Source of the DNA: Nemertoderma westbladi
Lineage: Eukaryota; Animalia; Xenacoelomorpha
DNA: 64,000 nucleotides
Direction: 5' to 3'
NCBI GenBank assembly: GCA_032718475.1
Contig: JAUCBJ010002167.1
Coordinates: 14,877 to 78,876 of the forward strand
Shown piece by piece: positions 11,991 through 47,198 of this stretch (position 1 is the first letter of the stretch; each line of letters starts with the position of its first letter). The notes beneath the pieces were generated by a model. That model saw only the letters and a list, made by a program, of their open reading frames with translations, had not been told where the DNA came from and did not search any database. The position numbers and the translations under genes were made by a program.

Positions 11991-12039
11991 GCAATATATG
12001 CATATATATATGCATATATACTGTATAATGAATATTACT

Positions 12040-12485: not shown

Positions 12486-12499
12486 ATCCTTACCATGTG

Positions 12500-13645: not shown

Positions 13646-13745
13646 TGGAAGGCATATTTCTGACTATCAGACAGCCTACTGGAACAACCGGTAGTTTGTA
13701 TATAATCATTGGATTCTCTCGCTGCCTGCTGGTCTACCATATAAT

Positions 13746-14762: not shown

Positions 14763-15139
14763 ACGGGCAGCTAAACGTTGGATTATCCAGATAAACGTTG
14801 GATTATCCAACGCAGTACTGTAATGGAAGCTACCTTTCAAAGATCAGACCGATCTGTCCGGCAATATCCTGAGGCAGGTGATATGGACAACGCACCCGAG
14901 TCTGTACAGAACCCGAAAACTATAGACCTTACGACATCACCTCCTCATAAAGCCACCCATTCATATTCCAAACGACAATTTCGAACCAGAAAGAGTTCGG
15001 GAATATCCACGCAGACAGACTGACAACCACCTGCATGCACAGCCGGGACACCGAAGGTATCCCTGTCACTTGTAAGTTTCAACCATACAATCAGTACCAT
15101 ACACTTTGACAATATACCCGGTAATGGCAATAACGATGG

Positions 15140-16265: not shown

Positions 16266-16281
16266 TCAGCTGGAAACTTGA

Positions 16282-19157: not shown

Positions 19158-19390
19158 AAGGGAGGCTACATTTTCGAATTTATAATTGTAATTAGTAATT
19201 ACCTATCACCTGCTGCACGTTTTTAAAGTTTTTTAAATCAAATATTTATTTTAACTGAACTCACCTTAGTAGATCGCTAAGTGATTTAATCTTTGGATTA
19301 TTTTAAAAACTGGTACCTGGACTCATTTTTAGAAATAAAAGCGCTTAGAGCTTAAATGTCTTATTTTGGTATTAGCGCTATATAAATATA

Positions 19391-20877: not shown

Positions 20878-20897
20878 TATATATTATTATTATTATT

Positions 20898-21711
20898 AAG
20901 CCAAATGAAGTCCGGGTAGTCTTTGACGGTTCTGCCTTATATAAAGGCCAGTCGTCCCTGAACTCAGAACTATTGCCAGGACCCAATCTATTACAATCTT
21001 TGTTGGGGATATTATTAAGATTACGGCATACTCCATTGCGTTTACTTCCCTAAAGCAGTCATTGATAACAACAAGAAAGATATTTATATGGACGACAACA
21101 TCAAGTCCACAACAATGTTTAAGGAAGCGATAGAAGTGGCAATGGGTCCAGTCAAGTGCTTACAAAAGGGTGGATTTAGATTAACCAAATTCATCAACAA
21201 CTCCCAAGAGTTTCTTGATAAGTAAGTGAATGAAGAAGTAAAGACTTAGGCCTCATTAAGGATGACCTACCTGAGACTAAAACACTAGGTTTGAAGTGGG
21301 ATACCATGAGAGACGTAATGTTTTTCCAGTTGAAACAGCGCGACAATCCCGTTTGAACCAAAAGGATTTGTCTGAGTATTCTGAGCACCTACTTCGACCC
21401 TTAGGATTTATCAGTCCAGTGATCCTAGTTGCTCGGAACTTAGTACAGCAGATGTGGTTAGAAAACCACTCTTGGGACGACCCGCTACAAGGAAAACTGT
21501 TAGCCAAATGGATGAAGTGGGAAGACTCGCTTCCAGCTATAGAGGATTTTAAGATATCTCGCTCATATATTGGACACATTCTCCCCTCGTATTCCTATCA
21601 ACACCATGTTATTGGAGACATTTGCAATATTGGAATAGGCATGGTAGCTTATTTTAGAGTGGAAACTCCAATGGGAATCAAGGTCTCACTCATAGCTTCT
21701 AAATCTTTTAT
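20898..21711 (+). mobile_element. BEL/Pao family 1, segment 2 (RT/RNase H remnant)
   Basis: VRVVFDGSA..G..SLN.ELLPGPNL..LLGILLR, YMDD, GGFRLTKF, PLGFISP and SWDDPL. Confidence 0.88.
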
Positions 21712-21871
21712 TGTTGTATATGTATTAGGCCATGGATTTTATCTGTCTGTATGTGTACCTTCTATCTATATATATACCGGTACCTAAGTTGAGAATATTA
21801 TATATATCAGTCAGTCTGTCAGTCAGACTACTTATCTTGTTATGTATGAACTATGGTTCAACAACACAGCA
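21712..21871 (+). repeat. Gypsy 5' LTR
   Basis: Identical by manual comparison to 26896-27055. Confidence 0.95.
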
Positions 21872-22180
21872 TGGCGCAGTCAGTGTTTAGATATTCGAAC
21901 TCTACTGATCTTTTAATTTTAAATCATCTACATATACTCTACCGCCTGCTATAAGGGGGGCTGTTCACATAACCACTATACTGGTACCGGTAAAAACGTA
22001 CTGCTGAACCTGCCAGATTCTCCACTACCGGTACCAACTTCGCGAACGTTGATATAGGCCTACATAATTACCGACCAATCCGCCAGACTAGCCTAGTAGC
22101 CTATGCCAGGCCTATTTATCTACATCCATAAACAATAAACAGTAGGCCTAAGCCACTTACGGTTCGGTAAACTTATACTG

Positions 22181-25100
22181 ATGATGGAGAGAACGCTAGA
22201 TGAGACTCTCCAACTCTCCAATGATGAGATAGAACAGCTATCTCGTGAGGAAATCCACGCGGCATTCGATGTTTTGTCCATGCAGTGGGATTCTAAACAA
22301 TCAACAGCGCGAATGTGTAGTATGCTAAAAGTGGCAATACAAAAACACCACGATAACATTACAGCTATGTCTAAGGAAGATTCAAGAGGAGCCTACCGGC
22401 AACATCCAGTAGAACAGGATTCGGATACGCTATCTATGATGCAGAGGATGTTTGCACACATGCTGCAACAACGTGAAGAAGACAGGAGGCACCAGGAGCA
22501 GGAAAGTCGAATCCGGGATGAAGAAATGAAGTCTCTTCTACAATCACTTCGACTTCCTTCTTCTTCAGGCACTGATGGAACTCCAAGAGGCGGGGATCCA
22601 ATAAACCCTGTAAGAAATCCTCGAGATACAGTTAAAGCAACTGCTAAAATCCCAGACACCTTAATGGATACTGTGGACTACAAAACATTTAAACGTTGGG
22701 AACCATCCTGGGCCAATTATGAAACTGTGGTTAAACTTCGCGAACGCACCAGAGAGGAACAATTAGCAATGTTCTGGTCTTATTGCTCTCCCGATCTTTT
22801 GGAACGAATTAAAACAATTATGAGAATCCCACAGGACACTGAGATGACTCTCAAAGAAGTTCTCATCCAAATCCGACTATACTTAAAGGGAAAATGCAAT
22901 GTAGCAGTAGACCGTTTTCAACTGGTAAGGCGAACCCAAAAGGATCGAGAATTATTTGATGATTATTATTTAAAATTGCGCGAATTGGCTGACACCGCCG
23001 AATTAGCGTCAATGACTCAAGACGATTGGCTCACTACACTTATAACCTGTGGCATAAATGACGATGAAGTACGCCAAGAGTTATTGAGTAAAAAGCCAGC
23101 TTTAACCCTAGACGAGACCTTAACTCTCTGTCGGAACATGGAGACAGCAAAGCAGGATGATGAAAAACTCCGATCAGCATCTGGTGGAAAAACAATTAAC
23201 ATTAATAAATCAGGGCAAGAAAAAGAACATGACAAAAAATTTCGTGGTCGCAGCATGAGCAGGGGTCGGAAATGGGACAGATGGAAGGAACGGAAACAAA
23301 GTCACTCTATGGAAAGCACAAACATTCAAGCCAAGAAACTTTGTTATTTCTGCGGTGGTAATTATCCCCACCAATATGGGAGACCTTGCCCAGCCTCAGG
23401 AAAAACTTGTCGTAAATGCAAGAAGAAGGGACACTTTGATCGAGCCTGCCTAACATCCACTAGGAATACAGGCGGAGGTGGCAATTCATCCAACAATAAA
23501 TCAAGTTCAGCTGTTATAATAGCACCAACTGATACCAGTAATAAACAGGTAAGCTCTAGAAAGAAACCAATAATTACAGTAAACGTTTATACATTGAATA
23601 ATACATTCCTAGGCGAACAATGTATTACAGCCGACACTGGTGCTCAGGCCACTGTATCTGGTATTTCAATGTTAACTAGTCTTGGCATCGATGAATCAAA
23701 GTTAAATAAATTTCATGAAACTGTTGAAGGTGTTAATGGATCCAAATTAGACGTGATTGGATGCTTTGACTTATTTATTATGTTGGGATCACAGAAACAC
23801 AAAGAAACTTTTATTTTTTGTAGAAATATTCCAGATAAGGATGTTTATATTTCTCTTAGCGCATGTATTGGTTTGGGCTTAGTTTATGAAAACTTCCCAG
23901 TACAATTACCCAACATTGTACCTGCTGTACAAACTTCTACAGCATCACAGCCAGAATTGAATTGTAATAATGTCTCAGAACAAAATTTCATAAAAATTAC
24001 AGAAACAGAATTATTGTCAAAATTCTCTGATGTATTTAAATCAAAAGGTGAGTTGCGAGTCATGGGAGGGCCCCCCATGACTATTGAATTACAAGAAAAT
24101 GCAAAACCGTTTGCAGTTCATACTGCTAGAACAATACCATTCTCCTATCGTGAAGAGGCAAAGAAATCCATCGATAATATGCTGGAAGCAGGTATTATTG
24201 AGCGAATAGGAGACAGGCCAGTGGCCTGGTGTCATCCCATGGTCTGCGTACCTAAACCATGTGGAGGGATACGCATAACGGCAGATTTTACGAAATTAAA
24301 TTGCCAAGTAAAACGCCCAGTACATAATGCAAAATCACCATTTGATGTGGTATCAGAGATAGCGCCCAATTCTTTGTGGTTTACGAAAGTGGATGCGGCG
24401 CATGGGTATTGGCAACTGGCACTGGATGAAAATAGTCGTGATTATACAACATTTATAACACCCTGGGGGCGATTTAGATATTGCCGTGCCCCAATGGGCT
24501 ACATTGCCACAGGGGATAGTTTTAATCTAAGGGGAGATTTAGCATTCGATGGAATTGAGAATATCCATAAGATAGTAGACGACATTCTCATAGTCGATAA
24601 AGATCTTGATACCCATATTCGTCGTGTTGAAGAACTCTTAGAAAGATGCAGAGAGTTTGGTGTAACTCTCAATCAACGTAAGTTTAAATTAGCACTGCAT
24701 CGTGTTAAATTCGCAGGTTTTATCATATCAACTGATGGCATAGAGGTCGAACCCGATAAAGTAAAGGCCATCAAAGACTTTCCGGAACCCCGAAATATTA
24801 GTGAACTGAGATCATTTCTGGGAATGGTCAATCAGCTGGGGAACTTCAATGATAAAATATCCGAGGTAACAATACCATTACGTGACTTGCTGAAAACACG
24901 TAATGAATACATCTGGCTAGAAAATCACTCTATCGCATTTCAGGATGTGAAGAAAGTACTCACAAGTTCCCCAATTTTAGCCCATTTTGATGCGAGTAAA
25001 GAAACCCGTATAGAGACAGATGCTTCAAGACTATACGGTCTGGGGTTCGTTTTGCTTCAAAAACATAGTTCTCAATGGCGATTAGTGTTATGCGGAAGCA

Positions 25101-26751
25101 GATATTTGAGCGATGCAGAATCGCGATATTCGACGATTGAACTAGAGGCTTTAGCCATGAAATACGCAATTACTAAGTGTAACCTATATGTGGCAGGCTT
25201 ATCCCATTTTGTAGTTGTCACCGATCATCGCCCTCTATTGACTATATTCAATAATTATACAATTGGTCAAATCGAAAACGCACGCCTCCAACGAATTAAA
25301 TCTGATTTACAATCACGATATCAATTCTCCGTGGCATGGTGTAAAGGAAAAAATCACTCAATTGCCGATGCTCTCAGCCGGGCTCCAGTAGATAATCCTT
25401 CCAATGGCAATGACGAAGACACCCAACCTCCCCAAAATTCATTGACACATATTGCATTAATTAGTCTAACAGAAGAAAATTATTGCACAGATCCCCTAAT
25501 TAAAGAATTACAGAAAGCGGCTGAACAAGATGAAGATTATCAATCCCTAATACAAGCAATATCTACTGATTTCATTAATCTAAACAAAGCACCAATATGT
25601 TCAACAATTTCGATCGATGCATGATCAACTATACTTGGACAATGGGCTGGTATTATATGGCACACGCCTGGTAATCCCTAAATCTCATCAGAAAGAAATA
25701 TTAAACAGGTTACATGCCTCACACCAGGGCATTATACGCACAAAACAGAGGGCGCGTTCAGCAATATTCTGGCCAGGCATAAACAACGAGATTACGCAAA
25801 TGATAAACTTGTGTCAACTATGTCAGGAACGTAGACAGAGTTTACCAAAAGAGACAATGTTATCCGATAATACAACAACTAGACCCTTTGAATCAGTATC
25901 TGCTGATTTGTTTCACTTAGGAGGGCGTCTATATCTCGTTTACTGTGATAGGTTCTCAGGATACCCTTGTGTTGCGGAATGGGCACATGATCCTAACGCA
26001 TCGCAGGTAATTCAAGTTATAAGAAAATGGTTTGTAGATACTGGTGTTCCAGTAACTTTGAGAACAGATGGAGGCCCACAGTTTGCCTCCTCAAAATTCC
26101 GCGACTTTTTGAAACGTTGGGGCGTCAATTGGACTCCTAGTACACCACATTATCATCAAAGTAATGGGCATGCAGAAATATCAGTAAAGACAATAAAGAA
26201 TATGCTTGCCAAGATGCCTACCACCCATATTGATAGCGAAGAATTTGCAGAGGCATTACAAGAACTTAGAAATACTCCTAGGGCAGATGGAAAGTCCCCT
26301 AATCAAATATTATTCGGTTTTAATCTACGCTCCCGAATACCTGTCCATCAGAGTACATTCTCAAAAAAAATGGCAGGACCTATCTGATGAAAATGAAGAA
26401 AAAGATACCGATACTGCAAATGATTTGTATAATATATCATATTATAACGCCACAGCACATGACTTAAAACCATTCCGGGTTGGCGATAAAGTCCGGATTC
26501 AAGATCCATCAAACAAACGGTGGGTCAAGACAGGGGAAATCGTAGCAGTTGGGAAGAGGCGAGATTACATGGTAAAACTCACCTCTGGAAGGACATATTG
26601 GCGGAACCGAAGGTTTTTACGCCACAACTATATACCAATCGATAACAATCGAACTGATGATCACTCGAACGAACCCAACAGTGAATCATTTATACGCAAA
26701 CCCTATGAACTACGTAATAAAAAGAAGCATGTAACATTCAATATAGAATAA
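22181..26751 (+). CDS. Gypsy Gag-Pol polyprotein (two apparent 1-nt frameshifts)
   Basis: Tandem CCHC knuckles, protease ADTGA, RT IVDD, RNase H TDAS/ELEA/TDH/ADALSR, integrase HHCC and D..D..E. Breaks near 25595 and in the A-run near 26365. Confidence 0.93.
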
Positions 26752-27055: not shown

Positions 27056-28382
27056 TTTATCAATAACAATTTGAGAGTTCCTTGAGCGGAATTAAAGGCA
27101 GCTTTATATGCCACAGCCATAGGAAAGAATATTACCAAACAGATCGACTATAAACAGGACAGAACCTTCTATTGGACAGATGCTGTACTGGTCCTAGAAT
27201 ATCTCACCAACCAAGGCTGTCAATTTAGAGTCCTTGTTACAAACAGAGTTGCGATTATCCTCAGTTGTACAAATATAGAAAAATGGACACATTGCTCGGT
27301 AGTCATCAATCCAGCCGACATAGCTTCCAGAGGAGCCACACCAAAAGAATACACTGAAACACCTTGTTGGTTGAGTGATCCAGCTTTCCTGAACCAACCA
27401 GATGATAAAAGCCCCCCACATTAGACCCCCTGTGAGATTATATAGGCCAAGGGAGCGGAGAAGGTTAAGACCAAAACTAGTACGGTCAAGGCTACGTTAT
27501 TCAGACCAGCAGTAGATCTGTTGGTATTACATTTATCTGGCACTGTTGATACAGACGATAGATACAGACGAGATAATAAGGAGATCTTGTTAGACCACTC
27601 TCCCAAGACCCAAAGTAAAGAAGTTGCTAGTATGTCATCTAAGGATGTGAAATCCAGTATTCCAGACATTATCCAATGGGCAATGGCCAATTATAGCTCT
27701 TGGAATCATCTTTGCAAAGCCATCACTTATCTAAAAAGGTATTTTCATAAGAGATATAGAAAGCTGAAAGACAAAGACACCCCCAAAAGAACTGAAGTAG
27801 CTAATGCAGTGAAGAACCTTTCCACCTATCGACCATCGACACAGTTTATCCCAGACAGGACAACTCATCAGTTCATGGCGAAATTAGAACACACTATTAT
27901 TTTCAAGGAACCTCGTAGAGCTTTGAAATTAATCTTGCGAAATTGTATCAATGTAGGAAAGCATTTGGTAGGCCTTTAATATAGCGAGAGGCAGAATTAC
28001 CTACCTTTCACTAATACTGGTATGGACTTATTTGGCCAAATAGAAGTATAGAACCATGGTCAAGCAATGGTGCATAATATTTATATGTATGACCTGTAGA
28101 GTGATTTATTCGGATATGGTTAATGACTTATCTATGAATAGTTTCCTACTTCGCTTGCACCAACAGATCGCTCGTTTTGGGACCAGCAACACTATGCGAT
28201 CAGACAAGGGAACTAACTTCATTGGAGCCAATAATGGGATAACTGCTTACATGGAAAACTGGAACACAATCATTTACACATGACAGCTTCCAGCTGGATG
28301 TTCAATGCAGCAGACGCTCATTGATGGGGAGGTAGAGACTCATATGCAGAGTAAAGACTGGGTTTCACTTTGTAGTGCCATG
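27056..28382 (+). mobile_element. BEL/Pao family 1, segment 3 (RNase H to integrase remnant)
   Basis: VP*AELKAA, FYWTDA, NRVAII, NPADIASRG, GMDLFG and RSDKGTNFIGA. The reading continues across the Gypsy TSD. Confidence 0.85.
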
Positions 28383-28723
28383 AGTAGTATATGACGATTC
28401 GTTATCCACTCAGAGTCACCCATAGCCCAGCATTACCATGTTTTCTACTCCTGCTGACTAATCAGAAACCACCATTTCAACCATTACCAGTGGTTGTTAT
28501 TATTTCAACCAGTCAGAAGTCAGCATTTCAACCGCAACCATGGTGAATTCTCAAGTTCCCGCATATTCCGCTAGAGGCATTATTAGTCACCCAGTAAACT
28601 CCCTCTCTACTCCTTCCAACCAATCGCCAGCCTTTATTTTACAGGCGCTCAGGTGTCTACAGGTAACTTCTACTATTTTTCAAATCGCTATTTTTCACCA
28701 ACCAGTATTTTCAAATCTTTTAT
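28383..28723 (+). repeat. Polinton left terminal inverted repeat (truncated internally)
   Basis: Reverse complement of 46859-47198, with about 26 differences by hand count (~92% identity). Confidence 0.93.
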
Positions 28724-31700
28724 CGAGTCGACGCGCGACGACAACGGTGGTTGGAGTACCGAATTCGCCAGCCAGCCACAGGCCGAGGGCAACGGACAGC
28801 CCACCGGAACGGCGACGGTGGGGCTGCCGGTACGACGCCGGACGAGGAAAGGAGGCGGAGTCGGCGAAGATGACGTCGGGACGAGTGATCGGCTACGACG
28901 GGCGTACAACGCCACCAAGAAACTACTTAAGGAGGCCAAGGAGGGGAGAAAGGTAGACCAGCCTAAACTATACCAGAGGCTAGGTGAGTCGAATAAACAC
29001 TTTCGCTATTTAGTCCGTTTTGGACAGGGAGAACTGGTGAGTGAGAGAGCGAGGGGGGTCGCCACAGAACTGTTTGAGTTGTGGCAGTCCGGGGTAATGG
29101 AGCCTGAAGTAGTGTACGTAGGGCCTTACTTAGTGGATAATAGGGGAATTAAGTTAGTGGGTTGGGCGGACCCACACGATGGCGAACCCGAGGTTAACCA
29201 CGAGGATTCGGTGTCGTCGGTTAGCGAGAACCCCAGAAAGTGGGGGGAAGTTAGTAGGACAGAGAGGTGACAGGAGTCCGTCGCGACTGATAAGTCTGCT
29301 ACATCCTCCGCAAAAGCAAGAAGGGTGCTAGAGATAGATCTGGCGTGTGGCGCTAGATCAGCAGGAGTTGGAGAGGCAACTGGACGAGGCAACCGCGTTA
29401 TTAGAGAAAGAGAGAGAGTTAGCAAGGGAATGTAGAGAGAGAGAGCCGAGAGGGTGGCGAGAAACTACAGGGAGCGGGAAGAAAGAGATGAGTGAGCGTA
29501 AAGAGGGCAAGGAGTGGGAGGCGAAAGTAGAGAAAGCGCACGAGGAGCGGGAGGCAAAAGTAGAGAACGAGCGCAAAGAGCGAGAGGCGAAAGTAGAGAA
29601 CGAGCGCAAAGAGCGAGAAGCGAGAGAGGAAGCGAGGCTAGAGAGAGAAACGAACGAGCGTAGAGAGCGGGAGGCGAGGGAGGCAGAATTGGTCAACCAA
29701 AGTTTGAGAGAGGACAGAATAATCCGAATAATAATTCTAATTTAAATGTACAAAATAATCCAAATAATAACCCTAATTCTGAACAAAATAATTTAAATAA
29801 TTTAGGTAACAATATTACGTTAGATAATAACCCAGAGGAAATTAACCAAAATAATATTATTAATAACGGTGCAATTAATACGAACATAGGGGAGACAGGT
29901 GGTCCGGCCAGCAAGAGCCTGCAAGGCCACGTAGTTATGCAGGGAGTAGCAGGGGTGAGTCAACCCAACAAGAGCCTGCAAGGCCACGCAGTCGCACAGG
30001 GAGTAGCGGGGGTGAGTCAACCCAATGGGAGCTTGCAAGGCCACGCAGTCGCACAGGGAGTAGCGGGGGTGAGTCAACCCAATGAGAGCCTGCAAGACCA
30101 CGTAGTCGCACAGAGAGTAGCGGGGGTGAGTCAACCCTACGGGAGCCTGCAAGGCCACGCAGTCGCACAGGGAGAGACAGGGGTGAATAGAACCAGCCAG
30201 GGTAGAGAGAGTGCGTCGACTAGAGAGGGGCGTAGTAGCGAAGTAAGAGGTGGTGAATGGGGGGGGGGGGGGCTATGGAGGGCGAGAGGGGGGCCAGAGA
30301 ATGCCCCACAAGTGTCGGCGGACAATGCGTGCGGCGACTTAGGTGAACCATGGCACCCGACGACAGAGAATGGTAAGGGATTGTGAGTATCCCCAGAAGC
30401 GTCCAACCGGGTAGAGAGATAGAGGTTGGCGCCGTGAGCAGGCAAGCGACAAGACGTCGAGCCCAGTTGGAAGACGGAAGAAGAACAGTGGAGTTTATCC
30501 GGGAGGTCGAAGCGAGATCTCACGAGGGGAATCGCTATACTGAAGAGAGATGAAGTGAAGAGAATAGAAGAAGCGTTGCTACGAGCAGTCGAAGAGGAAG
30601 GACGGATAGTGAACCATCGGTAGTAGAGATGGAGAGTCAGTGGGGTCGAACTCCGGGAGATTGCCATCGCCCCGGAGAGACGCAGCCTGGTGAGATATAT
30701 CACACACCGGGTGAAGGGTACAGGATGTACCGGTGCGAGGACGAGGACAGGAGAGGGGATCGAAGAGAAACTTCCCGACAGGACATAGCTGCCAATCGAG
30801 AGTATGGTGGTCACGGGGAGGACTTCTTGGAATATTCGAGAAGATTAAACTTCGATCCGGAAGGACACAGGCAGACTGCAGGACATACTGTAGGCCTTAC
30901 TGCACATACTATAGGCCATGTTGGAAGAGATCGTGTAGGCGATACGGCAGCGCGGACAACGGGATTAGATCCGGAAGTCGCGGCATACATACCAGTATGT
31001 AGGCAAGAGGTAGATAGGCCTATACCGCTACCTGCACACCAGTATGACTATAATATGCAAGGATATAACATATACCCAGGGGATGGGGGAGCTATGCAGC
31101 TATGGGGGCTAGCAGGGTGACATTCCCCCATTACAATATCGCAATATACTCAACCAAGAACAAAAACCCCAAAACCCTCGGACCAAAATAGATCGTGTGA
31201 CACAGAGATATGGAGGGGACCATTACCCCCAATGATATATCCAATGCAAAAGAAGTCGACAGGCCCGACGGGCGAACTGCACCCGGTAGCAGGGGAATCT
31301 GTACAGCATCCATCGAGCCCACTAGAAGTACAAGCGATGGGAATGTCAACACTCATCGACGTGCTCAAGACCAGGATTGAGCTGCCGCCAGTGGAGCCGT
31401 TCAAATTCGATGGAAGCAGACTGGAAGAATATCTACAATTCCGATGTATGTACAGTAATTAAATATTGACAAAGAACCTGACGCAGGCGGAGTGCCTAAA
31501 ATACTTACAAGTTTATACAGGGGGGCCAGCATATGACATCGTAAGGCAGTACCAAGGTATCGAAGGTGGATTCACGACTGCATGGCGGGCCCTAGACAGG
31601 GAATACGGACATCCTGCTAAGATCATCCAACAAACCTTAAGGGGAATTACATCAGGAAGACTACACCAGTCAGCATCAAGACTTTCGCTAATAAAGTCGA

Positions 31701-34700
31701 GAAGGCGCTGATTGTGCTGAAGACCTTGGATGCGCCTTACGAACTCAATGCATCGAATAACATCACCACAATAGCGCAGGCACTGCCGATCTGGCTAAGA
31801 AACAAGTGGAGGAAGATCGCCTTCTCCACCCGGGAGAAGAAAGGTATGGAACCATGCCTAGAGGAAATGTCGAACTTCCTCAATTACGAGGCGGAACTAA
31901 TCATGGACCCAGTCTATAGCGAGGATAGTCTGGGGAGGGCGCCGAGGGCCAAATACAACAGGCCGAAACCAGAGCATAGTGCGGCAAATGCATTACCAAA
32001 GTTAAGACAATCGCTACCATACGCGACGACGCAGGAGACTGCAAGTCCACAGATAGCCGGGGGTAGGGCCACACCGTGGCATGAACAGGGACAAAATAAT
32101 AACACGAACAAATATAACCCTAACACGCCCAGTAGGCCAAACCCAAATAATAAGAACGCCAGACAGCTAAGTATGAATATACGTGCGATACGCAATACGC
32201 TGTATAGAGAAGGCTATAATCCGAGAAACAAATGCCAATTACACTCGAACGCACTCCATCAGACCATGAACTGCAAGTATTGGCAGGCGTTACCCAAACA
32301 AGATCAGGTTGAATATGCGAACAGAAGTGGAATCTGTCATTGATGTGTGGTAGGCGGACACAATGTTGAACAGTGTAAGGAGACGCCAATAAAATTCGGT
32401 CAAGGCAAAGGTCAAACGATGGTGACAAGTACCATAGGAGCGAAGAAAAGGGGAACGGTACTACTCGGGGTGGTATCGGTAAGGGTGATGGGAGAAGGCA
32501 GCCGATCAGTCACGACATTGATGCTGGTCGACAGCGGAGCAGCCTTTATGCTGGTGGAGAATTGGGTGGCCAAGGAGATAGGGTTACAGACGAGGCCGAG
32601 TAGGATGGCAGTAACTACTATCTCGAGCAAGGATGAGGTCCTGGAGATGAAAACGGGATGGTGCGAGATATCAGCAATAGCACCAGGATGTGATTATGGG
32701 GCGTCCATCGACCCCATTCAAATAATAGATGTAAATATAGAATAATCAATGTAAACGCCAGGCGACCCACCAGGATCGAGGTCGAACAATACCGGTTCCT
32801 GGACGATATTGATTTCTCAATACTGGAAGTGGACGTCTCGAAGGTATCCATCATAGTCAGAATAGATTTTCCGACGGCCCACGAGAGAGTATGGACCATA
32901 TTCGGAGAGAACAGGCAATCCGATGGCGATTCTCACGCCGTTCGGATGGATGCTTAGCGGCCCAATTAAAACCAAAATTCCATTCAGGGTGTCGGAGACA
33001 TCAGGGTGCATGTTTGCAGGGACAATGAGGGAGATGGAGGATGAAGGAGCAGATGAACAGCTTAATAGGCTGTTGAAGCAGGATTTCGAGGGATTAAAGG
33101 AGGCCGGGGTTGGAACCTCAGTAGAAGATAAACAAGCTATAGAGAGCGTAAAGGAGTCGATGAAGCGCAAAGGGGGACGGTACACCATAGGAATGGTGTG
33201 GAAACAACCAAAGGTACTGTTACCAAATAATAAAGGGATAGTACTCACGAGGCACCGCAAACTGAAACAGACGCTCAGACGGAGCCCCGAGAAGGACGAG
33301 TACATCCACAAAACAGCCGTGGAGTTACCGGTCGACGAGCCAAACAAGGACAGGACCTACTATCTGCCACTGCACGTGGCTTTAGATCCAAAGAAGGGTA
33401 AACTGCGGATGGTGGTCGACGCATTGGCCAAAACGAATGGCAAAAGCCTGAACGACTATCTGCTAGAGGGCCCAAACATCTACAACTCAGGGATAGAGGT
33501 CCAGTTGAGATTCAGAAATGGGAGGCACGCCTTCACGTGCGACATTGAAGGCATGTTCAACCAGGTCTGTGTGACGGAAGAAGACAGCGATAGTCAGCGC
33601 TTCCTATGGTACAACGGCGACTAAGAACCATCTGAGTTACCGATGTACAAAATGGTGGTGCAGAACATGGGGGCCAAGTCGTCCTCATTTACAACGACTA
33701 TGGCTGTGAGAGATACGGTAGAGGGCAAGGAAGGAGAGTATAGTGCGAAGGCGATCGATATGATTCGACATGGTTTCTATGTAGATGACGGGATGGGATC
33801 TGGAAACATGGTTGAAGAAATACTGGAGATAGGGCACGAGGTTTGCGACATCCTAAAAGCATCCGGGTTCAACCTTACTAAGTTCCAGTCCCGCTCCGAG
33901 GAATTCATGAAGGCCATAGAGGACAAACGACCAGTAGTGTTAGGGTGGTTACATAATGAGAAGATGAGATACCCTATATTCGTCGCGAACAGGATAGACG
34001 AGATAAGAGCGACGACTGACCTAGAAAGGTGGGATTACTGCCCTACCGACGACAATCCAGCAGATCTGTTATCAAGGGGAAGAGATATACAGCCAGTTGG
34101 TAAGGGAGATCAAGGAAGTGCCACCAAAATCAGAATACCATGCGATAATCCGACGGATAGGTTGCTTAGTTACAGCTCCAGCTGGTACAAGACTAATAAG
34201 TTGGTAGCATATTGGAGGGCCTACGGGGATTTCCTCATGGGAGTTGGCAAGGATACCAAAAGGACGCCAACCATCGATCTGGAAGGAGCGGCTAAAGCCG
34301 TAATACGATATGAGCAAAGAAAGGGGTACACCGACGAAGTGGACAGAGTCAGCAAACAACAACACCTTCATCGAGACAGCGAACTCAACACGTTGTCCCC
34401 GCAGCTGAACGATGATGGGAATCTGGTAATGAATTCCAGGGTGGTGAACAACAAAAACCCAAAATAATCCCCAACAAATCACCAATAGTCCACCAGATCA
34501 TATGGGACTCACATAAATCGATACTACATGGAGGCATAAATCAAACCCTCACGGAGATACGAAGGATGTTCTGGATCACCCAACTTAGGAAGAAGGTGAA
34601 AGCGGTAGTGGGGCAGTGCCAGACCTGACGACGGACGAGAAAGGAGAGGGCCGTACAGGAGATGGCGCCATTACCGGCCAACAGAGTGAGACATCACAAC

Positions 34701-35431
34701 CTGCCATTCACACACTGCGGCGTGGACATGTTCGGGCCGATTAAGATAAAGGTGATGCGACACACAGAGAAACGCTACGGCATTATATTCGTCTGCAACA
34801 ACACAAGAGCGGTGGGAATAGAACTTTCACAGGATGCTACGGCATCGGCATTTATTAATGCCTTGGAGAGGTTTGTTTCCCGCAGAGGGGGAACGCTGAG
34901 GGTGATATATTCAGATAACGGGACCAACTTCGTGGGAGCAGAGAACGAGTTGGCCGAGGCCTTTGACATCCTAGAGGGAGACGATGTCAGGACGGCTGTG
35001 AGAAAGCATCGAGTGAAGTGGGAAAGGAGAATGCCGTACGCGCCACACACACTAGGGTGTGTAGAGAGGCTTGTCGGAAGTTCCAAGCGCTTGAAGACCA
35101 AGCTGATGAACAACCACATGGTCACCGAGGAGGTCACCGAGGTGCGGAGTATTGGAGAAGATGGATAGAAGAGTACCTTCCGACCTTACATAGGAGAAGT
35201 AAGTGGAGAAATACCAATAGAGAGTTGAAGAAGGGTGACTTGGTAATCGTCACTGACGACACAATTATCAATAACCAATGGAGACTAGCGAGAGTGGTAG
35301 ATACTTACCCCGACGAGGATGGAAGAGTCCGGTCGGTGGAAGTGAGGATAGGAGGGAAGATAGGGGCCAAAGATAGGAAGACCTACAGGAGGGCTGTGGG
35401 AAAGTGTTGCCTATTGGAAGGGTTACCTTAG
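28724..35431 (+). mobile_element. BEL/Pao family 2, copy A: 5'-truncated, disrupted gag-pol
   Basis: Gag LPPVEPFKFDG...LDREYG, protease LVDSGA, YYLPLH, SLNDYLLEGP, DIEGMF, FYVDD, NPADLLSRG, integrase GVDMFGP/SDNGTNFVGA, and W..EYLPTL. Stops and internal deletions near 33927 and 35140. Confidence 0.93.
29910..30185 (+). repeat. 57-bp (19-codon) tandem repeat x~5 in gag of copy A
   Basis: Repeated SLQGHAVAQGVAGVSQPNx; absent from copy B. Confidence 0.9.
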
Positions 35432-35596
35432 AGTTTAGTCGTCCAATATGTTGGACTGAGGGTGGTGGGAATGAGGGTGAGACGCCCTTCCCATACATAA
35501 AAAATACAAAAAATAAATAATAAGCAAATAATAAAATAAGAAGCAAGATAGTAGAAAGTTAGAAAGTAATAGAAGTAGATAGTACGTAGCACTAAG

Positions 35597-36125
35597 TAGT
35601 TAGAAGTTAGGGAGTGTGGTATATAGACATACCACGAGAGTAGTAGCAGGGTACATAGTACCGGAGTAGCTGGGTACATAGTACTGTAAGAGGAAGTAGT
35701 TAGAAGTTAGGGAGTGTGATATATAGACATACCACGAGAGTAGTAGCATGGTACATAGTACCATAAGAGGAAGTAGTTAGAAGTTAGGGAGTGTGGTATA
35801 TTGACATACCACGAGAGTAGTAGCAGGGTACATAGTACCATAAGAATGAGAAGTTAGAGAATAGGGAGTGTGGTATATTTACATACCACGAGAGTAGTAG
35901 CAGGGTACACAGTACCGTGAGAGTTAAGTTAGAGATTAGGAAGTGTGGTATATAGACATACCACGAGAGTAGTAGTAGGGTACATAGTACCGAGAGAGTT
36001 AGAAGTTGTGGGCACTGAGGGCGCCACGTAGTAAGAGAGTAGAGGGTATGGTATATAGGTATACCATAAGAGTAGCAGTAGGGTACATAGTACCGTAGAG
36101 GCTGTGGGTATTGAGAGCACCACGA
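35597..36125 (+). repeat. ~78-bp tandem array (about 6 units), each with two hairpins
   Basis: GTGGTAT-N6-ATACCAC and GGTAC-N3-GTACC in each unit, lying between the pol stop and the extra ORF. Confidence 0.9.
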
Positions 36126-36621
36126 AAGGGAGAGGGGGCCACATGGGTAGAGTAGGATAGACTGTGTAGGCCGCACGAGACAGACTATTGTACTGCACAG
36201 CCCATAGTGTAAGTTTAGGATATTTGTTACAGGGCCAGGAAGTTGCCTGGTACGTAGCTAGCACAGTAGAGAATGGCTAGTTTTCCCTGTATACAAACTA
36301 TAGGGGTTATCTAGGTTAAAAATAACCCGCCGATAACTGATAATAGCACAGTAAGAGAGAATAAAATAGTATTAGGAGCAAATTCAACAAATTATGACAA
36401 CAGTAGGCAAGGGATTCTAGAATCATAATTAAAGTAACGGACAGATTTGTAAAATTTAGGAAAATTGGCACTTTGGGGGACGCATACTTAAACATATAGC
36501 ATAAAATAGGGTTTCTAGGAGATAGGCCATTACTGAGCACAAACATCTTGTTAGACAGCACTCATCTAATTGAGCCTTGGTAAGGCACCACCAATAAGGT
36601 GAGCGCGCGAGAAAGTTCGTA

Positions 36622-39062
36622 ATGGTGGAGAGACTAGTTAAGAAGAGAAAGACGGAGAGGAGTGGAAAGGAGATACTAGTGGACTTCACGACGCAGAGGC
36701 ATCTGGCGATTTTCGAGCATTTTTTCAAGCATTTTCACTACGTAGTGAAAGGAGATGATGCAAAGTTCGGGATACCGAAGTATCCGAGGGAACCACCGAG
36801 GAAGGAATGGAAGAGGTTTGTAGAGTCTGTGAGTAGGGGCGGATATATGGTCCTAGACGACGAAGGGACTGTGGAGGACGATGAGGGCCCGAGAAGAGGG
36901 TCGACGGGATCGGCTAGAATCATACTAGTGCATTTGGCTGCGCCAAATGGAGAAATCTTTCTATTCGATCTGGGGACCTACGGGAAGAAGAGCGGGCCGA
37001 GTTGAACCGGCTGCCGAGGGTGGTGCAGGACCTAGTAAGGGAGAAGACTATGGTGAAGGTGGGATTGGCGATCCGCGACGATGCGGAGAGGATCGTCGGA
37101 CCGGAGACCCCCAACCTCCTGGACATGTAAGTGGTCTATATGGCCATGACAGGGCCAGAGGGGTTGGGATTGGTAGATAACACAGGACATTGCGGAGCAG
37201 TGGCGATGGGTCAGCTCATGGGGCTCGTCTGCCACAAGCCGATGGACTGGGGTAAGTTCCGGGGGGAGTATGGAGCAGAACTGGCGAACTCGCTGAAATG
37301 GGGAGCGAGGCCAGGGAAACAGGAGGTGAATCAGTTCCGAAGGGGAGCGATAAAGATATATCAGAAGAGATATATCCTACAGGAGGATTGGATAATGATA
37401 GGTTTACTAAACCTATTCATTTGCCGTGGTTATTGGAAGAGAGCCAATGGTGTTTCTGCTATCAGGAACACCTCATCTGTAATCTACAGAAGAGCCTTTA
37501 AGGTGGCCTTTGAAGGTCTGGTAGACCACCCGGAGCTGAAGGGTGAGTTGGTGTACTACGATAGCCGGCACCTAGTGGACAGAGAGTTGGATACACCATA
37601 CAAGAGGTGGGAGAAGCTGGAAGTGGATAGGGTCGAGGAGAAGAGGCTGGAAGAAATCGCCAGGCGAGAAAGGAGGGAAGCAGACAAGAGAGAGGCGGAT
37701 ATAAGGAGAGAGGAGTACGGGTTCGAAGCCCAGGACTTAGATGAGCTGAGGTGGGGATCAGGGAGCTCGGGCGAGTTTCTGGGGAGGAACTGGGATGGAC
37801 GGAGGGATCGCCAAAACAGTCGACATCGGGATTGCAAGTGATGCCCATACCAGGGGGCTCTGAGGACGATTTCGCAAGGAAGAGACCAAGGGAGCAGGAA
37901 GGGTGGAAAATTTCGGGTGGAAACCAAGGTGGAAAGGGGCACAGTGGATCTACCGGGCTTCCGGGTCTGGATCCACTCCCAGCGAGGGAAGAAGATGACG
38001 ACGATTTTGGGGAGATGCAGCCCATCGAGAGGATCGGCCACTCAGATACAGACTGGGTGGGTGGGGGAGTGGTGACGGCTAGCGGGGCGAGAGCCTTCTG
38101 GGATAAACCCGGCAAGCGGGCCTGGGTGCACGAGGAGCCGGCGATAGATTTCGCGGGGAGCACCATCAGGTTGGGCGAGCAGCCGGGAACGGCGCCACGG
38201 GTAGTGTTTGGGGAGAAGATGACGAGGGGGGAGGAGGACGTGGATATGGGTAGGGACCATAATGTCCAGATGTTTGCTTATCAACGGCTCCACAGACCTA
38301 GGAGACCGCTCGGGGCAAAGGACGACTTGGGGCAGGATTTGTTGATACACGGCTGTGACTACTGTGGGAGGCTGACTCACCAGGAAAAGAGCTGTTTGTA
38401 TCGATTCCAGAAGGGGGCGAGTTGCCTCTACTGCCGCGAGTCGACCCATAGGATGGGTGCGTGTCCTAGGCTGCACAAACCGCTGCTCAAAGTGTAACTT
38501 TCGAAGGCACTATGGGCGCCAGTGTGACTGGATGGACGATGAAGAGACGTTTAAGATCTTCGAGGAGTGGGCCGACGTCGGCGTTATGACGCGGCAGAGG
38601 ATGAAGGCCAAGGAGTTCCGGTGGGGCTTCTTCAACATCAATCCTGGAGCCCACCAGGAGATTATCAAGTGGAGACTGCCATTGACATACCAGGAGGTAG
38701 CGACAGTGGCATCATATGGAGGAGTCATCAATACGCAGAGATACTTGGATAGATGGACGCCAGAGAACAGGGGCGAGTTCAGGGACTTTTTGGCAGAACA
38801 CTTGCCGCAAGCAATGAAAATGATCCTGTGGGACGCTACCAGGGGGAAGCAGGAGGGGCACTTGGAAGGGCCACCTGCAAAGCGTTACCGGGAGTTGATA
38901 ACACCAGCGCCCCAAGAATTGACGATGGGGATTAGCAAGGCGGTAAGGGCGAGAATGAGGAGTCTCAGGGAGGACAAACCAGAGGGAAGGAAGCGGCCCA
39001 GGCAAGATGATGACAGGGGCAAAGAACTAAGATGGTTCCCGAAGATGGGAGGAGCGAACTAG
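36622..39062 (+). pseudogene. Extra ORF of BEL/Pao family 2: DEDDy-like 3'-5' exonuclease + three CCHC zinc knuckles (frameshifted)
   Basis: Joining frames gives YMVLDDEG...IILVHLAAPNGEIFLFDL...LPRVVQDLVREKTMVKVGLAIRDDAERI...YILQED, then CDYCGRLTHQEKSC, CLYCRESTHRMGAC and CSKCNFRRHYGRQC. Confidence 0.7.
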
Positions 39063-39496
39063 AACTCAGGGAGATGTGGGCATGCCTGGAAGGCACCACA
39101 TGTGGGAATGAATACGAACTCCTAAGTGCAAATAATTAAGTGCAATTAGTATGTATGTGTGTAGATAATAAATATAATCAATATGAATATAATCAAAGTA
39201 AGTACTATAGTCATATATAACCTTTTCCAATTAGCTACTGGGATTAGGGACCACTTGACTACGATAACTGGACGAGACACTAGACGGATCCCATTTCTCA
39301 AGTGTGGCCACACTAATGAGGATGTGGGAGCTCCACAGGAGGGTACGGAGGATGTAAACAAATGTGGGTTGAGTATAGGAGAACGGGGGAAGTATGTAGC
39401 GGAGGTGTTGACATGTGTAGAAGTGAGAGGAGTGCAATTCAAGTGTGGGGAGCGAGCAGTAAGAGAGAAAGCGAGGACGAGGTCCGTGAGAGAGAG

Positions 39497-41802
39497 TGTT
39501 ACGATATATGGCGCTGTGTACCAATATTAGCCGTTATACAGTATAATCATTTAGTTAGATAAGCCATAATGACGCCATAATGATGAACCGGCTTTGTGTA
39601 AGCAGATGTATAGTCTAGTACAAAGATATCCGGTAGTAGTGATGGGTTCGGATTTGACAGTGTTCAATAGAGAATAATTAAGACGACTTTCCTCTCCCTT
39701 ACTTACACCCAACCCCCACATTACGATTACCCCTCCCTTACTTACACCCAACCCCCACATTACGATTACCTCTCCCTTACTTACACCCAACCCCCACATT
39801 ACGATTACCTCTCCCTTACTTACACCCAACCCCCACATTACCCCTCCCTTACTTACACCCAACCCCCACATTACCTCTCCCTTACTTACACCCAACCTGT
39901 ATTTAGAAAAGGAAAATAAAACGCCCATATTTGTGAATGTTATCCATTTGTACAGTATGTAGTCCTACCTATGTAATTTTGTAATAAAATATAAATAAAT
40001 AGTTCTACGGTAGCAAGTTTCCTATAAAACCCTTGATGTAAGCTTGCTGTTATTAGTATCAATAGGGCTAACTGTCTATTTGCTTTAATTTCTATTATAT
40101 TTGCGCTAAATTAGATTTTATGTACTGTGCTTTTAGTACCGCTAAATTAAGCAACGCCAAAATTACCATATATGGTGGCAATTTGTGATTCTGAGGGGGA
40201 ATAGGTTCACAATCCGGCTTCCTTATTGGCCTAGCTGCTTCCAGGTTGGTCTAATGGTAGCGCGGATTGGGGAACCAATCAGAGGATTATTGCATCATCC
40301 TTGATGAATCACATATAAATTGGCTGTATTTCCGGTATGTGCATCTCAGTTATCCATAATCTCATTCTCAGTCTGTGTATAATCTCTTATTTTGTATTTC
40401 CGTTTGTTTCTTGCAATAATTCGCAAATTTTGTAATTTCTGCTTTATTTCTTGCTGCGTTTCTTAATTAATCTCGATGATTGCTGCAAATTACAATCCGA
40501 ACTATGATTTCTACCTTTTCATTAATGGTTCTATGTTATTAAGATGCGATAATCCTACGGGATTTCTTTAGACTGTCAGACTGTTTGTGATTGCATGCGC
40601 CGTTACGGTAGCTATTCATTTTAATGGAGGGCTAAGGTACCGGTAGGCGCGGCGGGTGCACCGGGGGGGTAGCGACGAAGGGAGTGCAGAGGATTCAAAG
40701 GCGAGCAATGCTGGCGGGGGTCACCGTTGCGGTCGGAAGGCCAGCAGTGTAGAGGGAAGACCGGTTGCCGGTACAGTAATTAGGGGGCTGACGATCCAGA
40801 TTTTGTCTCTATTTTGTAGTATTAGGGGGGCAGGAATCGGTTTAGTTAGGAAGCCTATATGTACCCGGGAGAGGCCTTCGTGTTCTACACTACAAACTGC
40901 AAACTGTACATTGAGAACTGCTAACTGTTAAGTATTCGCTATTGATTGTTACGCTGATTTGTGTGTTGCTAAAGTGTGCCTGATTAAATTATGAATGCTT
41001 AGATAGGCGCCTTTTTCCCTTGATTGATTTCTATTTCTTAGTTTACGATAAATAATTACTGATTAGGCCAAAGTAATACGGTATTTAGGCTGTTACTAGT
41101 GTAACCCGGTGCGTAATAAATTAGAATTGCGCATTCTGGAACACTTAGTAATTAGTACGCTGTTTCATATTTGTGACTGTAATTAATTAGTAAAATTAAG
41201 AATTTGTACGCAGCATAGCGGAGAGTAGTTAAGGTAATTATTTGGAGTACTGTAAACTATTCACGCTGGGCGGTTATTTGAAAATAGCGGACAATAAGCT
41301 AGATAGCAGTATCCAGTACACAGTAGTAGATTGCTGGCCTAAAGCCAGCCGAAGGCAAGTTTAGACCCATAGTACCAGCCCCAGTAGGACATTCTGTCAC
41401 ACTTTGAGTTATTTTAAACATTCTCACATTCACATATTCCGTTAGGGAACACCAGTATTTGCGATTAGAAAGGACGCGTTTATTTGCGCGTTTTTTAACA
41501 GTAAGATTAGGCAATAAAAATACACTCTGAGTGTAAGCCTCTAACACTCGTTTTAAGTAGCCTAGGGAGCCGTCTCGGGTTTATTGTTTTGGTTATTCCC
41601 GCGTGGCTCATAGATTCGAACAGTTAGCTCTCTATCGAGCAATCAGTAGAGAACGGAACAAGCGATTTGGAGGAGGCATATAAAATTAGTAAAATATATT
41701 AGCGGACGGCAGGTTAGCGCCATCCAGCGGTGAGTAGCGGTTTTGTGTTTAGCAGTAGTGCAGTAGTAGTAATAATGCGCTCCTGATCGCCCCTGTTTAA
41801 CA
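39497..41802. mobile_element. 2.3-kb non-coding insertion, probable solo LTR
   Basis: TGTTA...TAACA ends, TSD GAGAG/AAGAG. Excision restores a gaggtccgtg(ag)5taagggac unit like its neighbour at 41821. Confidence 0.7.
39690..39897. repeat. 30-36-bp minisatellite (ctcccttacttacacccaacccccacatt[acgatt]ac) x~6
   Basis: Direct tandem units visible. Confidence 0.9.
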
Positions 41803-42928: not shown

Positions 42929-45908
42929 ATGAGTGAACACGAGATGACCAAGGTCCAGAGGAAGAGACCCCGAGCGACAGAGACGAAAGGATTCGGTAAG
43001 CAACGATGAGGTGGTACTGGCCCGCCACATCGGATTCGACAATGAGGGACGCTCCGGTCGTTGAGGAGGAGGGTGGCAGAGTACGAGGAGGAAAGGGGAG
43101 CGAGTCGACGCAAGATAAGAGCGGCGAACGAGGTACCGAAATCGCCAGCCAAACCAGTGGCCGAAGGCGGCGAACGGCCCACCGGAACGGCAATGGTGGG
43201 GCCGACGGTACGGCGCCGGACGAGGAGGGAAGGTCAAGTCCAGGAGGAAGACGTCAGGATGAGTAATCACCTACGACGAGAGTACAACGCCACCAAGAAG
43301 TTGTTGAAGGATGCTAGAGAGGGAGGGAAGGTAGAACAGCCCAAGTTGTACAGGAGGCTAGGTGAGTGCAACAAACATTTCCGCTACCTAGTACGATTTG
43401 GGCAGTGGGAACTAGCAAGTGAGAGGATGAGGGGGGTCGCCACAGAACTGTTCGAATTGTGGCGATCTGAGGTGAAGGAGGCTAGTGTGGTGTACGTAGG
43501 GCCCTATCTAGTAGATGCAAGGGGGATTAAGTTAGTGGGATGGGCGGACCCACACGGCACCAAACCCGAGGTTAACCCCGAAGATTCGGTGTCGTCGGTT
43601 AGTAGGAATGCTAGTAAGCATGGGAAAATTAGTAGGATGAACAGGCGACGGGAGTCGGTCGCAACCGAAAAGTCTGCTACATCCTCCGCGAATGCAAGAA
43701 GGGTGTTAGAGATAGATCTGGCGTGTCAGCTAGACATAGTTGCACTGGATCAAAAGGAACTTGAGAGACACCTGGATGAGGAGACCGCGTTACTAGAAAG
43801 GGAAAGGCAACTAGCGAGACAGTGCAAAGAGAGGGCCGAGAAGGTGGCGAGAGATTATAGGGAGCGGGAGGCAAGGGAGGCTGAAAGGATTGAGAGAGAA
43901 GCTAACGAGCGTAGAGAGCGTTAGCTGATCAGAGTATTAGAGAGGACAGAGAGAGAGAGAGGGCAGGTAAACGTATGAGGGATGATATGCATACCCAGTT
44001 GAGGGGGTTAATGCAATATCAGGCGAAACAAAAACGCCGATTAGAACTGGCAAAAATGGGTTTATCAGAGAGCGAGGCTGGTTCAGGAAGTATTTATGAG
44101 GAACCAGGGGTGATGGAAACCTTTGTTAAAACCCCACTTACAGGTACCAGACAACAGACCCTAAACTGGTGTGACCGGAAGGGCGGGGGGGAGGGTAATG
44201 ACAATATGTTTGATGAAAACATTAATATTAATAGTACCGTAGTAGATAACCGGGCAGAGGGAGGGACGTTGGTACCGTAAGCGGCCAAACGAGAAAACGT
44301 CGAGCCCACTCGGAAGACAGGAGAAGGACAGTAGAGTTCATCCAGGAGGTCGATACGAGATCTCTTGAAGGAGAACATTACGCTGAAATCAGAAGAAGTG
44401 AGGAGGGGCAAGGAAGTGTTGCTACGGGCAACCAGAGACGTCGAGAGAGGATGGACAGTGAACCGTCGATAGTTGAACTGGAGAGAGAAAGCCGGTGGGG
44501 TCGTACTCTGGGAGATTCCCATTACATGCGCTGAAAACTAGAATTGAGCTGCCACCAGTGGAGCTTTTCAAGTTTGATGGTAGCAAGCCGGAAGAATATC
44601 TACAGTTCCGGAGAATGTACAGTAATGAGATTTTGACAAAAAATCTCACGCAGGCGGAGTCCCTTAAATACCTACAAGTCTATACAGGGGGGCCAGCTTA
44701 CGACATAGTGAGGCAATACCAAGGTATTGAAGGAGGATTCACAACTGCATGGAGAGCCCTGGACAGGGTATTTGGCCATCCTGCAAAGATTATCCGACAA
44801 ACCTTAAGGGGAATAACATCAGGCGGACTCGCAGATAACCCCGTTAGCATCAAGACTTTCGCTAACAAAGTAGAGAAAGCGCTAATAGTATTAAAGACTC
44901 TAGATGCACCTTACGAACTCAATGCATCGAACAACATCACCACGATAGCGCAGGCACTACCGATCTGGCTGAGAAACAAATGGAGAAAGATCGCTTTCTC
45001 CACTCGAGAAAGGAAAGGTGTGGAGCCAGGATGGAGGAGATGTCGAACTTCCTTAACTACGAGCCAGAGCTAATAACAGATCCAGTCTATAGTGAGGACA
45101 GTCTAGGAAAGGCACCGAGGACTGAATACAGCCGGCCTAAACCCGAATGTAGTGCGGCGAATGCACTTCCGAAGGTGAGGCAGTCACTACCGTATGCGGC
45201 CACACAGGGGACTTCAAGTCCACAGAGAGCTGGGAGTAGAGCCACACCATGGCAGGGACAGAAACCAAGTAACAACATGAACAAATACAAACCCAATACA
45301 CTCAGTAGGCCGAGTCCAATTAACCAAAACACTAAACCGCTAGATATGAATCTAAGCGCAATACGTGAAGCACTATACGAGGAACGCTACAATCCTGATT
45401 ACAAATGTCAATTGCATAGAAACGGGACCCATAAGACCATAGACTGCAAGCATTGGCAGGCGTTACTTAAACAAGATCGGATAGCCTACACTGGTAAGAA
45501 TGGACTATGTCATCGATGCATGGTAGGAGGACACAGGAAGGATGAGTGCCAGGAACCGCCGATCAAATATGGCGAGACTGATGGGACTGGAGGTCAGATG
45601 ATGGCAACGAGCACGATGGGAGCAAAGAAGAGGGGAACGGTACTACTCGGAGTGGTACCAGTGAGAATAATAAGGGAGAACGAGCTATTGGTTACGACGC
45701 TAATGCTGGTCGATAGGGGAGCAGCGTTCATGCTGGTGGAAAGTTGGATGGCCGAAAGAATAGGGTTATGGACAAAGCTAAGTAAGATGGCGGTGACCAC
45801 AATTTCCAGCAAGGACGAGGTCATGAAAATGAGGACGGGACGATGCGAAATAGCAGTGATAACACCAGGGTGCGACTATGGGGCTACCATCGAACCCATC
45901 CAGATCCA
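42929..45908 (+). mobile_element. BEL/Pao family 2, copy B: gag-protease only, 3'-truncated
   Basis: Co-linear with but diverged from copy A (YNATKKLLK, IELPPVE.FKFDGS, TVLLGVV, LVDRGA). Ends abruptly at AT-rich Polinton sequence. Confidence 0.9.
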
Positions 45909-46858: not shown

Positions 46859-47198
46859 ATAAAAGATATGAAAATACTGGTTGGTGAAAAATAGCAATTT
46901 GAAACATAGTAGAAGTTACCTGAAGACACCCGAGCGCCTGTAAAATAAAGGCTCGCGATTGGTTGGAAGGAGTAGAGAGGGAGTTAGCTGGGTGACTAAT
47001 AACGCCTCTAGCGAAAATGCGGGAACTTGAGAAGTTACCATCGTTACGGTTGAAATGTTGACTTCTGATTGGTTGAAATAATAACGACCACTGGTAACGG
47101 TTGAAATGGTGGTTTCTGATTGGTCAGCAGGAGTAGAAAACATGGTAATGCTGAGCTATGGATGACTCTTAGCGGAGAACGAATCTTCATATACTACT
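46859..47198 (-). repeat. Polinton right terminal inverted repeat
   Basis: Ends ...ATACTACT followed by TSD GCCATG. Confidence 0.93.

Follow-up and report, generated by a model that had tools for sequence, protein, structure and literature searches.

What kind of protein is encoded by the third open reading frame (ORF3), located behind gag and pol, of a retrotransposon of Nemertoderma westbladi, and what could it contribute to the element? The original prediction had read this frame as a DEDDy-like exonuclease followed by three CCHC zinc knuckles, placed where an envelope gene would be expected in a BEL/Pao retrotransposon. The window, that is the whole stretch of DNA analysed here, is 64 kb long and all positions below refer to it. 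Features of the element and of ORF3 are collected in Table 1.

Table 1. Coordinates of the BEL/Pao-type element, its ORF3 and the flanking signals within the window.
Feature	Position	Strand	Basis or remark
gag, decayed, BEL/Pao element	28724..32343	+	homology to second copy starts at 28724; 5' end lost to another repeat
DUF1759 piece within gag	31463-31708	+	Pfam DUF1759, E 6.7e-7
pol, decayed: aspartic protease, RT, integrase zinc finger and core, DUF5641	32344..35431	+	Pfam
Six repeats of ~77 nt between pol and ORF3, two predicted hairpins each	35589..36104	+	folding prediction
ORF3 N-terminal part, likely DEDDy 3'-5' exonuclease domain (WRN/EXD2/Mut-7 group)	36622..37418	+	profiles, motifs
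ORF3 middle: damaged stretch (37420-37484), charged R/E-rich run, glycine-rich linker	37420..38353	+	sequence; length differences and loose ends of contigs
Three C-x2-C-x4-H-x4-C zinc knuckles	38354..38525	+	exact motif
ORF3 C-terminal region	38526..39062	+	no credible match in Pfam, NCBIfam, Atlas, PDB or Foldseek
Candidate polypurine tract	39377..39392	+	sequence, position
Candidate 3' LTR	39395..40168	+	starts TGT; both ends inferred

The gag and pol domains support the predicted BEL/Pao nature of the host element. Within pol, Pfam matches are obtained for the aspartic protease (Asp_protease_2, E 8.3e-6), the reverse transcriptase (RVT_1, 0.0055, weak), the zinc finger and core of the integrase (Integrase_H2C2, 4.2e-10; rve, 7.1e-7) and the integrase tail (DUF5641, 8.3e-25), in the order protease, reverse transcriptase and integrase, and the frame stops at 35431 as had been proposed. 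The combination of DUF1759 in gag and DUF5641 in the integrase tail is one which we take to be typical of BEL/Pao elements. According to Pfam, neither domain is present at 22139-26387 in the neighbouring Gypsy-like LTR element (22139-26751), whose long open gag-pol frames match reverse transcriptase, RNase H and integrase profiles. An RNase H profile match is absent from the BEL/Pao pol (Pfam), where the core of this domain looks deleted by eye, and the gag and pol frames are interrupted at many places. A 341-bp repeat with two copies in opposite orientations and 92% identity (28383-28723 and 46859-47198) borders the element, with the first of them, where its 5' end is cut off.

Several other elements lie within the window. 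A second BEL/Pao copy (43100-45905) shares 73-80% identity with the element in gag and protease and ends after the protease, and fragments at 27086-28380 and 21281-21787 resemble by eye the pol of other BEL/Pao families, the two pieces scanned giving no Pfam match. A LINE-like element, also identified by eye (13695-19157), contains an array of ten 123-bp tandem copies (14984-16390), open as a 426-codon, N/S/D-rich frame which directly precedes an endonuclease-like ORF. On the reverse strand, an uninterrupted ORF of 355 codons (19644-20711) resembles by eye a Tc1-type transposase. In addition, a P-loop ATPase ORF of 199 codons (62322-62921) shows a weak Pox_A32 match (E 5.8e-4) and is possibly a Polinton-type packaging ATPase.

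ORF3 consists of four pieces which, joined by an X at each break, form a protein of 811 residues, in agreement with the ~800 codons anticipated. All of the motifs quoted in the original prediction are present, namely VLDDEG at 36850-36867, LVHLAAPNGEIFLFDL at 36925-36972, LPRVVQDLV at 37011-37037, KVGLAIRDDAERI at 37056-37094 and YILQEDW at 37371-37391. The three CCHC knuckles (38354-38395, 38423-38464 and 38484-38525) are likewise exact; six-frame translation of the whole 64 kb holds five C-x2-C-x4-H-x4-C motifs, three in ORF3 and two in gag genes, while 2000 base shuffles of the ORF3 region yield none. Weak matches of the knuckle piece to Radical SAM, CofG and the like were dismissed as cysteine-pattern matches. 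An env-like nature of ORF3 is ruled out because it harbors no membrane segment, the highest 19-residue hydropathy being 1.37 and falling in a region of predicted strand, and there is no match to env families in Pfam.

Recognition of the N-terminal part relied on home-made reference profiles, for which 56 bacterial PF01612 stretches were used together with eight longer proteins, WRN and EXD2 among them (nine less one WRN isoform). A 13-sequence profile (A1), whose best PDB matches are WRN (top), Mut-7 and EXD2, aligns with three unaltered ORF3 pieces in the correct order (E 0.033, 0.0049 and 0.29). With a mixed WRN/EXD2/Mut-7-like HMM, the X-read-through of ORF3 ranks first among 937 sequences at 11.1 bits, compared with 2.7 for the best of 500 shuffles. 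The hhalign probability is only 34% in local and 2% in global mode. Membership of the RNase D subgroup was rejected, with the bacterial RNase D-like HMM giving -2.2 bits against 11.1 for the WRN-like one and no HRDC match in Pfam; the Pol I profile is also negative. Seven ordered WRN-like blocks, picked together with their gap ranges by hand with the exonuclease hypothesis in mind, score 48.7 on ORF3 (z 7.8, reached by 0 of 400 shuffles) and fall on the quoted motifs. Blocks derived from RNase D select identical places at z 3.2 (1 of 400 shuffles), and those of Pol I reach z 2.2 (11 of 400).

The catalytic set would comprise D, E, D and Y, followed by E where the canonical residue is D. The D-x-E of Exo I (D 36856, E 36862) is placed by the ordered chain, its block scoring 0.5 against the WRN-like and 5.5 against the RNase D set, and the W block is approximately zero against the WRN-like set. 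The Exo II aspartate (D 37080) lies in a block which scores 16.7 and is recovered by hhalign at E 0.0049. Exo III (Y 37371, E 37383) takes the form Y-x3-E, followed by D and an aligned W, a conservative departure from the canonical Y-x3-D; YILQED, put forward as a possible Exo III, is present; the aligned acid is the E of YILQE and not the D. Furthermore, three strands are predicted at the places in the exonuclease region where the profile expects them.

Public sequence libraries do not confirm this assignment. Searches of the ORF3 pieces against Pfam, as the original prediction had suggested, and against NCBIfam and the PDB sequences gave no exonuclease match, and two word-seeded searches of longer proteins with the first and middle pieces returned no match. 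No homologue of ORF3 was found among 1.84 billion protein representatives and no ORF3-related locus among viral contigs; two metagenome matches were discarded as bacterial chance matches without similarity to the window. Atlas provides two leads, one cluster at 0.88 in which 13% of members bear PF01612 and another at 0.91 made up mostly of Rotifera, with a recognition of 1892, under the 2300 mark, and no usable match for the C-terminal region. The suggested folding and Foldseek comparison was run on two single-sequence models, with pLDDT values of 41.5 (first ORF3 piece, low confidence, no Foldseek match) and 42.9, both too poor for use, and is uninformative. With the home-made profiles in favour and the empty Pfam result and uninformative folds on the other side, the N-terminal part of ORF3 very probably adopts a DEDDy fold and is likely a member of the WRN/EXD2/Mut-7 group. 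Because no relative is detectable in the databases searched, it would represent an unannotated DEDDy branch.

The relation of ORF3 to the retrotransposon was addressed by a family test, in which short contigs of three public DNA runs, from two studies and one organism, were placed on 28400-40200. Each run contributed 13,000-21,000 short contigs, and all 30 bins of this interval are covered. Summed contig depth, which is not a copy number, amounts to ~3,800-18,600 over ORF3 and ~4,600-27,600 over pol across the three runs; the lowest depth, 590-730 at 36280-36673, adjoins ORF3 on its upstream side, and contigs of run X3 tile the junction of spacer and ORF3 (36224-36688). A joint from pol at 34286 to 39111, beyond ORF3, occurs in all three runs with sides of just 23-29 letters. 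It skips 4824 bases, including integrase and ORF3, and may derive from a non-autonomous deletion derivative. ORF3 and gag-pol have in common G-rich third codon positions and a high purine fraction (0.633 and 0.624, respectively, against 0.50 in the flanks). No contig in the three runs spans pol to ORF3, and for this reason their linkage is reached indirectly. ORF3 is nonetheless linked to the BEL/Pao gag-pol family in all probability, and its repetition together with gag-pol in three DNA runs bears out the claim that it belongs to the family rather than being an unrelated insertion. In these runs the family is highly abundant, with thousands of divergent fragments.

The copy of ORF3 in the window is dead. 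Its TAA stop at 37128 is confirmed, as is the existence of three frame breaks, of which the first two lie ~25 bases further downstream (36999 and 37780-37786) than the predicted 36975 and 37755, and the third, expected near 38480, is situated beside 38477, between knuckles 2 and 3. A cluster of differences at 37420-37484 constitutes an additional damaged stretch which the earlier count of lesions had missed. The stop is changed in 31, 22 and 17 contigs of the three runs, representing nearly all depth at this position. Contigs with length differences are found beside 36999 (5, 6 and 5), 37780-37786 (7, 5 and 4) and 38477 (3, 1 and 1), such differences being carried by 3-27% of the depth only. 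The breaks are likely lesions of this copy, given that other copies depart from it at the stop and next to each of the three frame breaks. Four listed contigs span the first break, two with one gap, one with two and one with none. A run X2 contig over 36835-37050, at ~85% identity, crosses it ungapped, from which it follows that a diverged copy has the same state there as the copy in the window. An uninterrupted ORF3 was not seen among the contigs of the three runs. The 40 best-supported of 368 substitutions are distributed over codon positions 1, 2 and 3 as 15, 10 and 12, with 3 skipped, and this even spread indicates that the present copy is drifting. The pattern fits neutral decay of this copy and says nothing on selection across the family. 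No catalytic codon is hit by these best 40 of 368, and one of them affects the third codon position of the last Cys.

Signals are also found on either side of ORF3. The repeat array between pol and ORF3 has a folding z of -4.33 (20 shuffles), with 98.7% of cells paired; the stems are kept and the loop of the first hairpin is variable. One two-sided change was detected, a number reached by 85 of 500 shuffles and not significant with six copies, and neither Rfam nor ARAGORN gave a match. On the folding prediction the array is a candidate packaging or protein-binding signal. On the downstream side, a probable polypurine tract and LTR had been placed at 39395. The purine run and the TGT are indeed present, but the LTR is a candidate only, with no matching 5' LTR in the 64-kb window. 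It contains a 39-bp tandem repeat (39689-39897) and AATAAA at 39983 and 39994, a CA at 40167-40168, shortly before a PBS-like TGG at 40173, is its putative end, and its sequence is repeated in the three DNA runs up to 40200. Upstream of the second BEL/Pao copy, a 39-nt match of 85% scores 54, which is marginal when shuffles reach up to 51. If the LTR ends at 40168, with the PBS-like TGG at 40173, the two BEL/Pao elements may share one tandem LTR.

The preferred reading of these features, plausible but held with some reserve, is that ORF3 encodes a 3'-5' RNA exonuclease guided by its knuckles, and that the RNA ends it would trim are those of the element itself. The closest working analogue is TbRND (PDB 7C45), a host mitochondrial DEDD exonuclease of Trypanosoma brucei with four CCHC fingers; without the fingers, this enzyme loses almost all RNA binding and cleaves far less (PMC7797062). 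By analogy, the knuckles of ORF3 would hold single-stranded RNA and direct its 3' end into the exonuclease site, and the RNAs trimmed in this way would most likely be the element's own transcripts. Intact family members could start ORF3 at its own ATG and produce a soluble protein aiding the RNA cycle of the element, for which the upstream hairpin array is a candidate binding site. Two of the ORF3 knuckles, compared with the PDB, give nine weak matches (E 0.36-5.2), seven of them to LIN28, one to TbRND and one to a nucleocapsid protein.

The substrate might instead belong to the host. As TbRND depletes guide RNAs, the ORF3 enzyme could attack the precursors of host piRNAs or siRNAs directed against the element, shortening or destroying them, which is considered unlikely, as is the broader proposal that an independently acquired WRN/EXD2/Mut-7-type nuclease with three RNA-binding knuckles acts as an enzymatic suppressor of small-RNA silencing. 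Mature piRNAs carry protective 2'-O-methyl groups which shield their ends, an argument against this substrate. Pointing towards it are the abundance of the BEL/Pao family in the DNA runs, the separation of ORF3 from the Gag-Pol polyprotein and a closest profile group which includes Mut-7/Nibbler, a trimmer of piRNA 3' ends in the available part of its description (PMC13269885), together with the finding, from the accessible TbRND text, that overexpression lowers a small-RNA population (PMC7797062). In rotifers, on the other hand, small RNAs cover the DEDDy ORFs as well, and some of the elements with such an ORF are low-copy (PMC5408684). If counter-defence were nevertheless the function, then, with the rotifer ORFs, nuclease-plus-knuckle would be a counter-defence module that recurs in the env position among LTR elements of animals.

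It is rather improbable that the domain is a DEDD fold with little or no catalytic activity, binding only RNA or host proteins in the manner of EXD1 or Maelstrom, as could be suspected from the E for D in Exo III, the lack of a YAA pattern and the low score of the Exo I block. An acid or Tyr occupies all five catalytic positions, untouched by the best 40 of 368 differences, and in the Klenow fragment a D-to-E exchange at the matching position leaves much activity. EXD1 and Maelstrom are inactive derivatives according to the accessible part of the rotifer study (PMC5408684). Action on DNA in the manner of WRN, with proofreading or trimming of cDNA ends before integration, would accord with the first place of WRN among the PDB matches of the reference profile and with the 3' end processing proposed, in the portion of the source available, for the DEDDy domains of Dada DNA transposons (PMC3706591); it is very unlikely given that ORF3 lies outside Pol and that seven of the nine knuckle matches are to LIN28 and one to TbRND, all RNA binders and all weak. 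The idea of a passenger, either a separate repeat or captured host fragment without benefit or an accidental exonuclease likeness, draws on the empty homologue searches, the absence of a contig spanning pol and ORF3 and the depth minimum directly upstream of ORF3, and is highly improbable in the face of the shuffle controls of HMM and ordered blocks, the strand and codon bias in common with gag-pol, the junction-tiling contigs and pol-to-39111 joint, and the catalytic and knuckle residues kept, among the differences listed, in copies down to 80-85% identity.

For a nuclease trimming the element's own RNA, comparison with TbRND extends to the order, in which a DEDD exonuclease precedes CCHC knuckles in tandem; the knuckle match is weak (E 0.4) and orthology is not claimed. 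In the accessible description TbRND has four knuckles and a linker of 28 residues, whereas ORF3 has three, a linker of ~280 residues between exonuclease domain and knuckles, and an extra C-terminal region. With WRN, EXD2 and Mut-7 (Nibbler), all PF01612 proteins, ORF3 has seven blocks in common in the same order and spacing, and the likeness is strongest in the KVG-x-x-I-x-x-D block of Exo II and the W six residues past the Exo III Tyr. Unlike them, it has diverged so far that Pfam does not detect it in the pieces, carries E as fourth acid, and would be a retrotransposon-borne nuclease fused to knuckles.

Among LTR elements, the closest parallel is found in Juno and Vesta of rotifers, which belong to Ty3/Gypsy lineages. 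The precedent of bdelloid DEDDy ORF3s invoked in the original prediction is real: Juno and Vesta LTR retrotransposons and Terminons possess DEDDy ORF3s with a DEED motif, in Juno and Vesta likewise after pol, in the env position and without a membrane segment, so far as the available text describes them (PMC5408684). The same text places these elements in retrovirus-like lineages, unlike the BEL/Pao element, and their motif DEED differs from the ORF3 set with E as fourth acid. A Cys-His-Cys motif is noted there for Vesta2 and Vesta5, with knuckles mentioned, in the accessible text, only for gag and pol; neither a clear link of the DEDDy ORFs to copy number nor a within-genome departure from neutrality is reported in it (PMC5408684). 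These elements are compared with ORF3 by description, the mostly Rotifera Atlas cluster being a lead only.

Belpaoviridae have two LTRs of 0.2-1.2 kb, a PBS and PPT and an element length of 4.2-10 kb (PMC8742986), a range which the present element exceeds even with its 5' end missing. As in members with a third ORF, whose gag-pol layout is PR-RT-(RH)-IN, PR, RT and IN are in this order and the third gene lies ahead of a candidate polypurine tract. Their third genes are env-like fusogens (PMC8742986), including those of Roo and mosquito elements in the portion of PMC13524379 available, unlike ORF3 with its lack of a membrane segment. The word 'exonuclease' is absent from the main text of a BEL/Pao survey (PMC3118150), and neither a BEL/Pao exonuclease ORF nor a three-knuckle layout was found in the literature covered, Repbase Reports and most subscription journals lying outside it. 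In that literature, exonuclease cargo as a third gene is so far known only from rotifer Gypsy-type and Penelope-like elements. With a nuclease-knuckle ORF3 repeated in a very abundant BEL/Pao family, enzymatic cargo in ORF3 would reach a further LTR superfamily, which suggests that RNA-trimming enzymes have been captured repeatedly. The thousands of divergent fragments make both selection and substrate, element RNA or host small RNAs, testable.
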